From Chloroflexota bacterium (GTDB taxonomy: Bacteria > Chloroflexota > Dehalococcoidia > JACPPT01), in the NCBI GenBank assembly GCA_016190815.1, contig JACPPT010000063.1, positions 2,370-66,369 of the forward strand: a DNA stretch of 64,000 bases, in the 5' to 3' direction. Below, piece by piece: positions 14,976-62,645 of this stretch. The position numbers and the translations under genes are program-made. How positions within the stretch are numbered: position 1 is the stretch's first letter; the number at the start of each line of letters is the position of its first letter. The notes under the pieces were generated by a model. It ran no database searches. It saw nothing but the letters and a program-made list of their open reading frames with translations, and was not told where the DNA came from.

Positions 14976-15812
14976 ATGAAGCTAGGCAATTTTGATATAG
15001 ATATTCTATCCGACGGCATAGTAAAGTTCGATGGCGGCTCTATGTTCGGTGTTGTGCCAAGGGTGCTCTGGGAAAAAAGGACACCGCCAGACAGGCAGAA
15101 CCGCATAAAGTTGGGATTGAACTGTCTGCTCATTCAGACGAAGACCAAAAATATCCTGGTGGACACAGGCGTGGGATCCAAAGAGCCCAAGAAGATAAGA
15201 GACATCTACGGGCTGGGGACAAGCCGGCTTCTACGGGAACTAAAGAGCCACGAACTTTCACCCAAGGACATAAATATAGTCATCCTGTCCCATCTTCATT
15301 TCGATCACGCAGGTGGTGCTACCAAGTTCGACCGTTCCAGAAATGTGGTCCCCACATTCCCAAAAGCCATGTACATGGTTCAGCGCTCAAGCTTTGAGGA
15401 TGCCTCTAACCCTGACGAGAGAAGCCAGGCAGGTTACCATGAGGGTGATTTCGTCCCCCTATTTGAGAAGGGGCGGCTCGAACTCCTCAACGGAGATACT
15501 GAGGTGTTGCCGGGCCTCTATACAAAGGTTACTGGCGGGCATGTCAAGGGACATCAGATAGTTGTTCTGAACTCTGGTGGGCATAAAGCCGTATTTCTAG
15601 CCGACTTCATCCCAACTCATCACCATCTAAACCTCCCATACATATCGGCATTCGACCTGTACCCCATGTCCACCCTGGAGGAGAAGAAACGCTTCCTCGA
15701 TCACGCTGAGAAGGATGGTTGGCTCCTTATATTTGGCCACGACACTGAGGAAAAGGCTGGCTATGTTGAAAAAAGGGGAGACCGACTCCATCTGAAGGTT
15801 GTTGAGGTATAA
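14976..15812 (+). CDS. MBL-fold metallo-hydrolase
   Basis: HLHFDHAGG metal-binding motif. Starts 13 nt after tRNA-Arg. Confidence 0.85.
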   Translation: MKLGNFDIDILSDGIVKFDGGSMFGVVPRVLWEKRTPPDRQNRIKLGLNCLLIQTKTKNILVDTGVGSKEPKKIRDIYGLGTSRLLRELKSHELSPKDINIVILSHLHFDHAGGATKFDRSRNVVPTFPKAMYMVQRSSFEDASNPDERSQAGYHEGDFVPLFEKGRLELLNGDTEVLPGLYTKVTGGHVKGHQIVVLNSGGHKAVFLADFIPTHHHLNLPYISAFDLYPMSTLEEKKRFLDHAEKDGWLLIFGHDTEEKAGYVEKRGDRLHLKVVEV

Positions 15813-15813
15813 G

Positions 15814-16437
15814 ATGGGATTGCCTATCACACTGGCCGTATACTCCGATTACATTTGACCCTGGTGCTACGTAGCAGCGGTTCGCCTGCAGAAGCTCAAA
15901 AATGAATACAACGAGAAAATCGCTATACAATGGAAGGGCTTCCCCCTGAGACCCCATCAAACCCCACCAGGCCCAATGAGCCAGCACAGTCGAGAGGGAA
16001 GACGACGTGCTGCGCAGGAGGAGAAAGAGGCCCATTTCTCTCCTTGGGACGATTCCCAGACCTACCCTACGTCCAGTATGCCGGCCCTCGAGGCTGCCAA
16101 GTGCGCCGAGCTCCAAGGGAAGGAGGCCTTTGACCAATTCCACCTGGCTCTTTTCGAGGCGTTCTTCGGAAGCAATAAGGACATAAGCCAGCGTGGGGCA
16201 CTGATTTCTGTAGCCGAAGCGACCAAGCTTGACCTGAAAAGGTTTATTTCAGACCTCGATTCCGGGAGCGCCAGACAAATCGTCCTAGCTGAGGCCAGGG
16301 AGGCCAGAGAGAAGTACGGCGATACTATTGGTGGAATACCCACAGTGGTCTTTCAGGGCAAATATCCCCTGGAAGGGGCAGTACCCCTGGAAATGTATCG
16401 TCGAGCTGTGGAAAGCCTCTCCAGAAGGAATGATTAA
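15814..16437 (+). CDS. DsbA/FrnE-family thiol oxidoreductase, predicted selenoprotein (Sec at codon 15, TGA 15856-15858)
   Basis: The frame is open from ATG 15814 to 16437 apart from one TGA. Translation LAVYSDYI-U-PWCYVAAV matches the DSBA N-terminal ..SD..CPWCY.. motif. C-terminal GIPTVVF cis-Pro loop is present. tRNA-Sec lies in the same window. Confidence 0.75.
15874..15889 (+). promoter_or_regulatory. candidate SECIS stem-loop
   Basis: GCAGCG-GTT-CG(C)CTGC hairpin starts 16 nt after the UGA. The apical loop begins with G about 22 nt after the UGA. Hand-folded only. Confidence 0.35.
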
Positions 16438-58436: not shown

Positions 58437-60092
58437 CTATACCTCCCTTATGGCATCGAACTGTTTGGGATAGGTGATTGGGTTTATCTTAGCCTCGATT
58501 AATGAGAGGACATCAGACTTGTAGGCCTTCTCCAGGGCCTTCTCCAGCTCCTTTTCCGTTGACACCGAAAAGCCCTGAGCTCCAAAGGCATCGGCAAGCT
58601 TTACATAGTCTGGCCCTCGGAAATCCACACCCACAGGTGCCAGCCCTCTTTTTAGCTGTTTGACCTTGATCTGACTCCCTGTACGATCTGCGAAGACCAC
58701 AATGACGGCCGCCGTACCCAGGTCCACACCCACCTCCAGCTCCTGGGCCCTCATGAGGAAGCCCGCATCTCCCGTGAGGCATATGACAGGCCTTTCCGGC
58801 ATGAGAAGCTTTGCTGCCAGGGCCGCCGGGAAACCAAAACCCATGGTTGCCAGGCCGTTGGAAGTAAGCATGCCCATGGGGTGATAGGTAGTCCAGAGCT
58901 GAGTGGTTATAAGCCTGCTGGAGCCAACGTCTGTGGTGAGTACCCCGTCCTTGGGCGTTGCCTCCCTGCATATCTCCACAACCCTCTGAGGCGCAAGGCC
59001 ATCGCAGGGTACATCCATGGCCTTCCTGACCTTATTCCTCTGGGCTATTATGATCTCGGTGTCCCACTTCTCCTGCTGTGGGAGGGAGTCGGTAAGCATG
59101 GAGAGGATCTCGCCTATGTTCCCCACCAGCTCCATCTCTGCATGGTAGATCTCGTCGGTGTTGGGGACTCTGTGTATGTGAATGATGGGTTGCTTGTATT
59201 TCCAGGGCTTCGGAAGGGCATCCACGCAATCGAAGCCCACGAGGATGAGAAGGTCGGAACGGTTGACCAGGTCTGCCTCTATGACGCCTCCTATGTAGGC
59301 GCCCGCAGCGTAGGGGTGGTCCTCCGGTATAGCCCCTTTCACCTTGGGGCCGGTAAGCACGGGCACGCCAATTCTCTCAGCGAAAAGCCTGAGCTCTTCA
59401 AAGGCCCTATCCCAGTTAACGCCCATCCCCGCAATCACCAGAGGCGCCTGGGCTTTTTGGATTCGCTCCTTAGCCTTTGTCAGGCCATCAGGCTCATGGG
59501 AGTAAACCCTGGCAAAGGACTGATGCTTTATAGTAGAGGCAAGCTTCTTATCAGGAGCTGTAGAAAGAGGAACGTCGTCAACCAAATCCAGATGGACCGG
59601 CCCCGGCCTGCCATCCAGGGCAACCCGAAAGGCCCTGTGCAGGGTCTCATGCACCCAGCGGGAAGAAAGGGGTGCGCACCACTTGGTTACAGTCCTCATG
59701 ACATCAAAGGTGTTCATGGACTGTCGGCTGACCATCTCCGTCGTTTCATAGGCATACTGGTCAGAAAAGTGGATGAGGGGGGAGCGGTCGGAATAGGCGT
59801 AGGCTATTCCATTCATCATATTGGCGACGCCGGGGGCTATGGCAGATATGCATATCCCAGGCTTGCCCGTAAGCTCCCCGTAGACAGCGGCCATCATGGC
59901 TGCTGTAGTCTCGTGCTTTGTGAGGACAAACTCTATGTCCTTCTTAGATAGAGCATCCAGGAGGTCCAGGTCTGCTCTACCGCCCGGAATGCCAAACGTG
60001 TACTCAATGCCCTCGTTCTTGAGAAAACCGGCCGTAACCTCAGCAACAGTCGCCATAAAACCCCTCCTCTCTTGATTTGAATGCTGCACCAA
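58437..60092 (-). CDS. thiamine-pyrophosphate enzyme, acetolactate synthase large-subunit-like
   Basis: Three-domain TPP-enzyme layout with a GDAGF...N TPP-binding motif (LTGDAGFLM). No adjacent small subunit, so substrate is unassigned. Confidence 0.85.
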   Translation of the reverse strand: MVQHSNQERRGFMATVAEVTAGFLKNEGIEYTFGIPGGRADLDLLDALSKKDIEFVLTKHETTAAMMAAVYGELTGKPGICISAIAPGVANMMNGIAYAYSDRSPLIHFSDQYAYETTEMVSRQSMNTFDVMRTVTKWCAPLSSRWVHETLHRAFRVALDGRPGPVHLDLVDDVPLSTAPDKKLASTIKHQSFARVYSHEPDGLTKAKERIQKAQAPLVIAGMGVNWDRAFEELRLFAERIGVPVLTGPKVKGAIPEDHPYAAGAYIGGVIEADLVNRSDLLILVGFDCVDALPKPWKYKQPIIHIHRVPNTDEIYHAEMELVGNIGEILSMLTDSLPQQEKWDTEIIIAQRNKVRKAMDVPCDGLAPQRVVEICREATPKDGVLTTDVGSSRLITTQLWTTYHPMGMLTSNGLATMGFGFPAALAAKLLMPERPVICLTGDAGFLMRAQELEVGVDLGTAAVIVVFADRTGSQIKVKQLKRGLAPVGVDFRGPDYVKLADAFGAQGFSVSTEKELEKALEKAYKSDVLSLIEAKINPITYPKQFDAIREV

Positions 60093-60156
60093 ACCCTGGG
60101 GAAAAACCGCCTTTATTTTACATCAACAATATGCCGTGTCAAAAACGGATGCTTTT

Positions 60157-60254
60157 TGGCGGGAGCGGGAGGGAGTCGAACCCACCCTCCAATGCGAAGG
60201 CACCGGAGCAACGGATTTGAAGTCCGCGAAGCCCACCGGGACCCATCCGCTCCC
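60157..60254 (-). tRNA. selC: tRNA-Sec (UCA)
   Basis: 98 nt. Has an 8-bp acceptor stem GGGAGCGG/CCGCTCCC, a 6-bp D-stem with 4-nt loop, anticodon loop CTTCAAA, a 9-bp variable arm (CTCCGGTGC-CTTC-GCATTGGAG), discriminator G, and encoded CCA. Confidence 0.88.
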
Positions 60255-60276
60255 CTACTTAGAACTAGCTCAGGCC

Positions 60277-61206
60277 TCAATCCCAGGTGGTCTCAGATAT
60301 ATACCCCTCGGCGCTGAGGGCAGCGGTTGCGCCATCCCCTGCCGCCGAGACTAGCTGCCTGGCCGAGTGCTGCCTTACGTCGCCTGCCGCAAATATCCCG
60401 GCCACCTCCGTCTCCATCTGAAGGTTTACCTGGATATGCCCTCCATTATCCAAAGGCAGAAGCCCCTTGAGAAAATCAGTGTTGGGGTGAATACCTACGT
60501 ATATAAAGACACCCCCCACATCCAGGATCCGGCGCTCGTTGGTCTTTACGTTTCGAAGGTTGAGGGCCTTCACCTCACCGTCGCCCACAATGGACTCCAA
60601 GACTGTATCCCACACAAACTCCATTTTGGGGTTCGCAAAGGCACGCTCCTGGAGTATCTTGGAGGCCCTGAGCTGGTCCCTTCGGTGAATCACAAAAGCC
60701 TTGGTGACGAATTTAGTTAGAAAGAGGCCTTCGTCCAGGGCTGAATCACCACCACCAACAACGCCGACTATCTGGTTGTTGAAGAAGGCGCCGTCGCAGA
60801 CGGCACAATAGGATACACCTTTGCCCGCGAACTCATCCTCACCAGGCACGCCCAGACGCCTGTGTTCCGAGCCGCTGGCCACTATGACAGCTTTGCAGAT
60901 GAAATCACCGTCCGAGGTCTTCACCCGCCTGTATTTCCCATCTAGCTCGAGGCCTTCCACCTCCACAAACTCGGTCTCCATGCCGAATTTGGTGGCCTGC
61001 TCGTGCATTTTCATCCCAAGTTCAACCCCGGTGGCCCCCTCCGGGAAGGCGGGATAGTTCTCCACACGGTCTGTAAGGGCTATCTGCCCTCCAATCATAC
61101 CTTTATCTAAGAGGACCGTCTTCAGGCGTGCCCGAGAGGCGTATAAGCCTGCGGTGAGCCCGGCCGCCCCTCCCCCAATTATTACAAGGTCATAGGTCTT
61201 TTCCAC
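60277..61206 (-). CDS. trxB: thioredoxin-disulfide reductase
   Basis: GGGAAG FAD motif, redox CAVCDG, and GGGDSA NADPH motif. Confidence 0.93.
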   Translation of the reverse strand: MEKTYDLVIIGGGAAGLTAGLYASRARLKTVLLDKGMIGGQIALTDRVENYPAFPEGATGVELGMKMHEQATKFGMETEFVEVEGLELDGKYRRVKTSDGDFICKAVIVASGSEHRRLGVPGEDEFAGKGVSYCAVCDGAFFNNQIVGVVGGGDSALDEGLFLTKFVTKAFVIHRRDQLRASKILQERAFANPKMEFVWDTVLESIVGDGEVKALNLRNVKTNERRILDVGGVFIYVGIHPNTDFLKGLLPLDNGGHIQVNLQMETEVAGIFAAGDVRQHSARQLVSAAGDGATAALSAEGYISETTWD

Positions 61207-61230: not shown

Positions 61231-61557
61231 TCAGACCAAAACGGCATCTAGACGCTTCTTAAGCACCTTCTTGGGGACGGCTCCGACTATCTGGTCCATG
61301 GGATTTCCGTCCCTGAAGAAAATAAGGGTCGGTATGCTGCGAACGCCGTATTCTATAGCAAGCCGGGGGTTTTCATACACGTTTACCCTCGCAAAGGTTA
61401 GCTTGCCCTCATATTCACCCACCAGCTGATTGATTGCTACGTCTAAAACGCGACATGGAGCACAATCAGGCCCCCAGAAGTCAACTAGAACCGGGGTCTG
61501 GGCTTTAAGAACTTTCTCATCAAAGCTCCCGTCGCCCACTTCAAAAGGTCCTGCCAT
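61231..61557 (-). CDS. trxA: thioredoxin
   Basis: VLVDFWGPDCAPC active site (a CAPC variant of CGPC) and the cis-Pro context SIPTLIFF. Confidence 0.9.
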   Translation of the reverse strand: MAGPFEVGDGSFDEKVLKAQTPVLVDFWGPDCAPCRVLDVAINQLVGEYEGKLTFARVNVYENPRLAIEYGVRSIPTLIFFRDGNPMDQIVGAVPKKVLKKRLDAVLV

Positions 61558-62645
61558 ACGAAACCTCCCTTGACTTTTTCTCTCCGCAGTTTCCTTATGC
61601 GTCGTGGAAATATAATCCTTCGAGGATGTGTTGTGTGAGGAAGGCTCATAGCCTCCAAAACACCCTCCTCCACAACCCGAGCGGCCTGCGCCACAGCGTT
61701 CTTTATAGCTTTAGCATCGCTACGGCCGTGAGCCATGATAACATTCCCCTTAACTCCCAGGAGCGGAACTCCACCGTACTCCCTGTAGTCCCAGGTCTTG
61801 GCGACAGAGGAAAGGGGAGGACCCCAGAATAGCATAGTTGCCTTGGAAGAGATATTCCCATCCAGAGCCTTCTTCATAGACTGGAAAAGGGCTTCTCCCA
61901 GCCCCTCAACAGTTTTCATAACCACATTTCCAGTAAACCCATCGACCACCACCACGTCGGCTTTGCCCGAAAAGATGTCTTTCCCTTCGACATTTCCAGT
62001 GAAGTTGAGCGGCGAGGCCTTAAGGAGCTTATGAGCCTTCTGAGTAAAATTGTTGCCTTTGCCGTCCTCCTCCCCATTGCTCAAAAGGCCAACCTTTGGA
62101 TTCTCTATGCCGTAAACCCTTGACATATAAGTGCTTCCCATTTGAGCGAACTGGACTAGAAACCTGGGTTTGCAGTCCGAATTGGCCCCTACATCCAGTA
62201 AAACGGCTGTTCCAGTAGCTGTGGGGAATAATGCAGCTATGGCGGGGCGCTCCACCCCCTCTAACGTCCCAAGGGTGAAAAGCGCCGTAGTCATGATAGC
62301 TCCGGTGTTTCCAGCGGAAACAAAGGCCGAAATCTCTCCCCGTTTTAGGAGTTCCATCCCTACCGCTATAGATGAATTTCGCTTGCCCCGCAAAGCTGCC
62401 ATGGGTTTCTCGTCCATTCCCACTGCCTCAGCGGCGTTGACGATGGCGAAGTCAAGACCCCCGTGCTCGAGCTTTTCCAGCTCCGCTTCAATGACAACCT
62501 TATTCCCCACAAGCACGAGCTTTACATCCTGCTCTCCCAAGGCCTCTATGCCACCCTTTACAATTTCCCCGGGCGCCTTGTCTCCGCCCATTATGTCCAA
62601 TCCCACCGCTACCTTCTCTGTCACCAACAACCTCCGAAACTTCAA
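61485..62645 (-). CDS. plsX: phosphate acyltransferase PlsX (with ~55-aa basic C-terminal extension)
   Basis: VAVGLDIMGGDKAP start motif and GFTGNVVMK motif. The ORF runs 73 nt into trxA in another frame. Confidence 0.88.
   Translation of the reverse strand: MKFRRLLVTEKVAVGLDIMGGDKAPGEIVKGGIEALGEQDVKLVLVGNKVVIEAELEKLEHGGLDFAIVNAAEAVGMDEKPMAALRGKRNSSIAVGMELLKRGEISAFVSAGNTGAIMTTALFTLGTLEGVERPAIAALFPTATGTAVLLDVGANSDCKPRFLVQFAQMGSTYMSRVYGIENPKVGLLSNGEEDGKGNNFTQKAHKLLKASPLNFTGNVEGKDIFSGKADVVVVDGFTGNVVMKTVEGLGEALFQSMKKALDGNISSKATMLFWGPPLSSVAKTWDYREYGGVPLLGVKGNVIMAHGRSDAKAIKNAVAQAARVVEEGVLEAMSLPHTTHPRRIIFPRRIRKLRREKVKGGFVWQDLLKWATGALMRKFLKPRPRF

Follow-up and report, generated by a model that had tools for sequence, protein, structure and literature searches.

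A selenocysteine tRNA gene behind the thioredoxin genes of a Dehalococcoidia genome

The selC locus and its neighbours

The window analysed here, a stretch of 64,000 nt on contig C52 of a Dehalococcoidia assembly (1.33 Mb in 81 contigs, 53% G+C, 71% estimated completeness), carries a gene for selenocysteine tRNA (tRNA-Sec; selC) directly behind the genes of a thioredoxin system. The features of the locus, numbered from the first position of the window, are as follows:

60115..60142, minus strand: promoter-like sequence TTGACA-16-TAAAAT, matching at 11 of 12 positions and beginning 15 nt past the 3' end of the tRNA
60157..60254, minus strand: selC, tRNA-Sec of 98 nt with UCA anticodon, 8/5 bacterial fold, discriminator G and encoded CCA (ARAGORN, RF01852, covariation)
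60255..60276, minus strand: spacer of 22 nt between the trxB stop and the 5' end of the tRNA, presumably the leader that RNase P removes from a transcript reading through from trxB into selC (sequence, promoter scans)
60277..61206, minus strand: trxB, low-molecular-weight NADPH thioredoxin reductase (TIGR01292 equivalog, 372.5 bits for a cut-off of 343; Pfam Pyr_redox_2)
61231..61557, minus strand: trxA, thioredoxin (PF00085, 86.7 bits; TIGR01068, 93.5 bits, just below the cut-off of 96.8)
61485..62645, minus strand: plsX (PF02504, 355 bits), first recognisable gene of the plsX-trxA-(trxB)-selC block

The identification of selC in the preliminary description is borne out by two independent programs and by covariation. 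ARAGORN places a tRNA-SeC (anticodon tca) on the minus strand with its ends exactly at 60157 and 60254, and Rfam cmscan matches RF01852 (tRNA-Sec) at 60161-60254 with 68.6 bits (E = 6.5e-12; gathering score 47), the match covering model positions 1-91 of 91 and thus the full length of the model. It is the sole tRNA-Sec gene in the assembly and has the top RF01852 score genome-wide, the remaining matches being to tRNA-Ser(UGA), tRNA-Ser(GCU), Leu, Tyr and ordinary tRNAs. As had been stated, no open reading frame explains the stretch: none of at least 80 aa was found across 60157-60254. The locus holds the organism's single selC, which is a genuine but ordinary bacterial tRNA-Sec gene of known kind.

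Upstream of the tRNA, trxB exhibits the motifs CAVC and HRRDQLR, and its closest relatives are all from Dehalococcoidia or Chloroflexota metagenome-assembled genomes (MAGs). The trxA gene is preceded by a strong ribosome-binding site, AAGGGAGG, and encodes a thioredoxin whose active site, FWGPDCAPCR, contains the atypical DCAPC, whereas the TrxA proteins linked to selC in other Dehalococcoidia have WCGPC: among the 20 relatives with an aligned motif, 18 read FWAPWCGPC and the other two likewise keep the Trp (as WCAPC, and as WCGPC after AV). The TrxA of the window, in other words, has Asp in place of the almost invariant Trp that precedes the first Cys; a second thioredoxin of the same genome, on contig C38, reads WCMPC. 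Selenoprotein character of trxA or trxB was considered and rejected, since neither the linked copies nor the copy of any relative contains an in-frame stop. The frame of plsX extends about 55 codons beyond the conserved domain and has a 73-nt overlap with trxA (61485-61557, minus strand), while the PlsX matches of relatives end near residue 333. Farther upstream, a terminator-like hairpin follows nifU at 63435-63407, and the plsX-trxA-trxB-selC unit therefore probably begins after this hairpin.

On the other side of selC lies a gene for an acetolactate-synthase-like TPP enzyme (best NCBIfam match PRK08322 with 421 bits, below the cut-off of 509), followed by genes for a CARDB surface protein, guanylate kinase, RemA, EPSP synthase and prephenate dehydrogenase. 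The distance of 64 nt formerly assigned between the tRNA and the TPP gene presupposes a start at the TTG at 60092; the gene probably starts at the ATG at 60056, which stands behind a GGAGGGG ribosome-binding site, and the distance then becomes 100 nt. Likewise, the spacer to trxB, formerly given as 23 nt, is one nucleotide shorter by sequence. A genomic island inserted at selC was rejected as an explanation of the neighbourhood, with no repeat of the tRNA 3' end in the window and no integrase downstream.

Fold and covariation of the tRNA

In the ARAGORN drawing the molecule comprises (i) an acceptor stem of 8 Watson-Crick pairs followed by an AU linker, (ii) a D-stem of 6 bp (GGGUCC/GGGCUU, three of its pairs being G·U or U·G) with the 4-nt loop CGGU, (iii) an anticodon stem of 5 bp with the 7-nt loop CUUCAAA, in which the anticodon tca stands at position 35, (iv) an extra arm of 9 bp with the 4-nt loop CUUC, (v) a T-stem of five positions, the second of which is a U·U mismatch, and (vi) the discriminator G, followed by a genome-encoded CCA. 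The acceptor/T helix accordingly has the 13-pair bacterial 8+5 form, with U·U at one T-stem position. Every element of the fold that had been drawn by hand (8-bp acceptor stem, 6-bp D-stem with 4-nt loop, UCA anticodon, 9-bp extra arm, discriminator G) recurs in this drawing; the U·U at the second T-stem pair had gone unmentioned.

Folding the 98 nt by minimum free energy fails to give the cloverleaf (z = -1.85, not significant). Plain folds of this kind are usually uninformative for tRNAs, and we therefore rely on the covariance model and on covariation as evidence for the fold. The latter was assessed on an alignment of 30 Dehalococcoidia tRNA-Sec sequences, consisting of the window copy and the best match from each of 29 relatives, all 29 of which ARAGORN calls tRNA-SeC(UCA); mean column identity is 82%. 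When the 8/5 structure is laid on these sequences, 95.4% of the cells form standard pairs, compared with 47-59% in a control in which the 3' partners were slid by one to three columns. Compensatory changes, that is, changes on both sides of a pair, occur in 24 of the 33 pairs, and the observed values were reached by none of 500 shuffles. The D-stem pairs in 100% of cells with both-side changes in five of its six pairs, the extra arm covaries at all nine pairs, and the acceptor and T helices pair in 90.8% and 95.3% of cells, respectively, again with compensatory changes. The window copy shares one and the same fold with the selC of other Dehalococcoidia.

The second T-stem position is unpaired in seven of the 30 sequences including the window copy, U·U standing there in the window copy and in no fewer than five of the others. 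G·G occupies the eighth acceptor pair in 18 of the 30, and the window copy has G-C at that pair. In the alignment (columns 8/89 and 73/87) the non-standard pair always falls at the acceptor/T junction.

With bacterial tRNA-Sec in general, for example those of E. coli and Aquifex aeolicus, the window copy has in common the UCA anticodon within CUUCAAA, the 8+5 helix, the 6-bp D-stem with its CGGU loop, the long extra arm and the discriminator G. It differs in the U·U at the second T-stem pair, while most Dehalococcoidia instead have the G·G at the eighth acceptor pair. Moreover, the selC of the window stands behind trxA-trxB, and not alone or beside sel genes.

Linkage of selC to thioredoxin genes and its transcription

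The preliminary description had regarded the placement beside the thioredoxin genes as remarkable, yet possibly coincidental. It is not a coincidence of one genome, since the arrangement recurs across the class: among 29 Dehalococcoidia relatives with a tRNA-Sec, each from a different family, selC lies directly behind trxA or trxB in 17. In ten of these trxB directly precedes the tRNA, with trxA upstream of trxB in nine, and in the other seven it is trxA that directly precedes the tRNA, with plsX visible farther upstream in five; overall, plsX is found upstream of trxA in 11 relatives. A separate search centred on trxB added eight named MAGs of Dehalococcoidia or Chloroflexota with this gene order, so that plsX-trxA-(trxB)-selC is common to the window, the 17 families and these MAGs. 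The gene downstream of selC in the window, on the other hand, is not conserved beside selC in any relative, and the tRNA thus ends the conserved block.

The linkage is not found everywhere. In the remaining 12 relatives selC has another location, which for at least five is beside selB, selD or selA, and none of four further loci of the same class from the phylum sample has selC behind trxA or trxB. Six Dehalococcoidia genomes possess trxA-trxB with no selC behind; three of them carry selC at another place that lacks a trx gene, and the other three have no selC at all. In other classes of Chloroflexota, for which the tRNA-Sec loci of the families were compared with 2.2 kb of upstream sequence, selC follows trxA or trxB at none of 36 loci, and none of the trxB loci inspected outside the phylum (Cloacimonadota, Zixibacteria, Thermoleophilia, lactobacilli and others) has selC behind it. 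This distribution fits an origin of the trx-selC link within the Dehalococcoidia, where it would have been kept widely but not strictly.

As to transcription, promoter scans did not find a sigma-70-like promoter in the spacer before selC; upstream, they returned a single sigma-70-like match, a weak site (9 of 12) that lies 190 nt away inside trxB, and a motif search for the TGTGCTATAAT-type extended -10 box of this genome yielded no occurrence near selC. On these grounds we rejected a promoter of its own for selC. The promoterless spacer makes read-through from trxB likely, and the tRNA-Sec is then likely to be released from the longer transcript by RNase P cleavage. The TTGACA-16-TAAAAT sequence past the 3' end of the tRNA is likely a separate promoter of the TPP gene, from which this next gene would be transcribed and which would mark the end of the unit.

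The relatives exhibit a comparable picture only in part. At nine selC-linked loci the spacers measure 7-34 nt (one pair having an identical spacer), and no promoter-like site was found in any of these nine spacers; two of the nine have no more than a weak match (9 of 12), located within the coding region at 98 and 160 nt upstream. Over all linked relatives, however, the spacer ranges from 7 to 416 nt (median 65), and, in contrast to the window, several relatives with longer spacers have TGTATACT, TGCTATAAT, TTAGAAT or TATACT 8-27 nt before the tRNA. These -10 boxes look like promoters of their own, and read-through from the trx genes is thus not a conserved requirement.

It would be tempting to regard the plsX-trxA-(trxB)-selC block as a functional unit that selection maintains in a large lineage of Dehalococcoidia and not as mere inherited gene order. 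The thioredoxin system is known from E. coli and mammals to reduce selenite to selenide, and co-transcription of the tRNA-Sec, if the block were such a unit, would tie the capacity to decode Sec to a system able to supply selenide for SelD. The recurrence of the link in 17 of 29 families, spacers as short as 7 nt and a downstream gene that is never conserved are all compatible with such a unit. We nevertheless consider it rather improbable, as it is weakened by the promoter-like boxes that several relatives possess before selC, by the three genomes that keep trxA-trxB and have selC elsewhere, and by the relatives, at least five in number, in which selC stands beside sel genes.

Selenocysteine machinery of the genome

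The genome encodes further components of the Sec machinery, and the search for selA, selB and selD that had been proposed for this purpose was successful in two of three cases. selB (C19:40070-41959) is an ORF of 629 aa that reaches 358.9 bits on TIGR00475 (cut-off 242), and selD (C2:925-~1960) reaches 384.3 bits on TIGR00476 (cut-off 125). The latter contains a single in-frame TGA at C2:976, in the context ...SLARCAG-U-AAKFSPEEL..., at the catalytic Cys position, and folding predicts a hairpin, the putative SECIS element, downstream of this UGA. selD is itself a selenoprotein gene, which a gene caller would truncate or whose start it would miss. Within the window, 44 kb from selC, a DsbA-like gene (15715-16437) begins with MGLPITLAVYSDYIUPWCY... 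and exhibits a UxxC motif (UPWC) when its TGA is read as Sec; selC backs the selenoprotein call made there, as had been proposed.

selA was not found in the 71%-complete assembly, whether the models TIGR00474 and PF03841 or, by tblastn, the SelA of relatives served as query, and neither was SepSecS, on which account Sec synthesis of the archaeal type was rejected. The proposed capacity to read UGA as Sec is accordingly supported by selC, selB, selD and the UGA-containing genes, while the machinery is only partly shown and the Ser-to-Sec step is unaccounted for in this assembly. The relatives suggest why. In a class sample of 41 genomes, composed of the window genome and 40 further genomes, one per family, tRNA-Sec occurs in 30 (including the window's own; 101 of 161 in the phylum sample) and selA in 26, mostly in the same genomes; in those at least 90% complete the two co-occur almost perfectly. 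A tRNA-Sec without selA was observed in five further genomes of the class, four of them 54-85% complete and one 95% complete. Since selA largely tracks tRNA-Sec in the relatives, incompleteness of the assembly is the likeliest reason for its absence.

One might argue instead that selA has really been lost, that the Sec trait is decaying and that selC is a relic no longer used for Sec insertion. The three unsuccessful searches for selA, the absence of SepSecS, the small size of the genome (1.33 Mb) and the five other genomes of the class that have a tRNA-Sec and no selA would agree with such a decay. The incompleteness of this assembly and of four of those five genomes, together with the near-perfect co-occurrence in the more complete ones, takes much of the force from this argument, however, and the tRNA has kept its fold, both selB and selD have their full length, and the frames of both selD and the DsbA-like gene remain open across a UGA at which either protein would be truncated without Sec insertion. 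We thus regard a relic as very unlikely. Even less credible is that the gene specifies a tRNA-Ser or tRNA-Leu (class II) whose anticodon has changed, or a tRNASec-like molecule carrying Cys or another residue to UGA: class II tRNAs do score on RF01852 as well (tRNA-Ser(UGA) on contig C18 with 51.1 bits), and a tRNASec-like gene with GCA anticodon and discriminator U in relative G024 indicates that such variants occur in the class, but selC scores 17 bits above the best tRNA-Ser, its 8-bp acceptor stem, 6-bp D-stem with 4-nt loop and UCA anticodon are present and covary with those of 29 relatives, its discriminator is a G (the SerRS type) and not U, separate tRNA-Ser(UGA) and tRNA-Ser(GCU) genes exist in the genome, and no covariance tool assigned it another identity.

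The best explanation of the locus as a whole, which we hold with high confidence, is that selC encodes a tRNA-Sec at the end of a plsX-trxA-trxB-selC block and is most likely expressed by read-through from trxB. From the gene order and the established bacterial pathway we infer the following course of co-transcription, processing, charging and Ser-to-Sec conversion. selC would be transcribed as the last gene of the block, and RNase P would cut off the 22-nt leader; the CCA is already part of the gene, and the mature ends are likewise presumed. A long variable arm and discriminator G73 are identity elements of seryl-tRNA synthetase (SerRS) in the tRNASec literature, and the enzyme would, as in the established pathway, charge the tRNA with serine by way of the long extra arm and the discriminator G. 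SelA, the enzyme not found here, would then convert Ser to Sec with selenophosphate from SelD, and SelB·GTP would bring the Sec-tRNA to UGA codons followed by a SECIS hairpin, while the 13-bp acceptor/T helix would keep the tRNA from EF-Tu.

The presence of selC shows that UGA can mean selenocysteine in the host genome. Its practical value is one of annotation: gene callers will for this reason cut short both selD and the DsbA-like gene, and probably further selenoprotein genes as well. That Dehalococcoidia use Sec is in itself already established: two MAGs with 49 and 46 selenoproteins place them among the selenoprotein-richest bacteria (2026 database paper, PMC13326102), and Sec-containing dehydrogenases were mentioned by an earlier single-cell study (PMC4959059). 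Our only additions are the class-wide trxA-(trxB)-selC synteny and the caveat of the missing selA. A full-text literature search yielded no description of trx-selC linkage in Dehalococcoidia, which is weak evidence of novelty. The arrangement constitutes a small new piece of comparative genomics, usable as a synteny marker within the Dehalococcoidia, and leaves the understanding of Sec decoding unchanged.

Two further observations concern tRNA-Sec genes of the relatives. The tRNASec-like gene of G024 (within C1:24211-24501) is 92 nt long, combines a long extra arm with a GCA (Cys) anticodon and a U as discriminator, and scores 56.1 bits on RF01852, with a normal tRNA-Sec(UCA) in the same genome. 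Furthermore, two tRNA-Sec(UCA) genes each are present in the Chloroflexota relatives G036 (on C68, 4.5 kb apart), G014, G019, G127 and G194.
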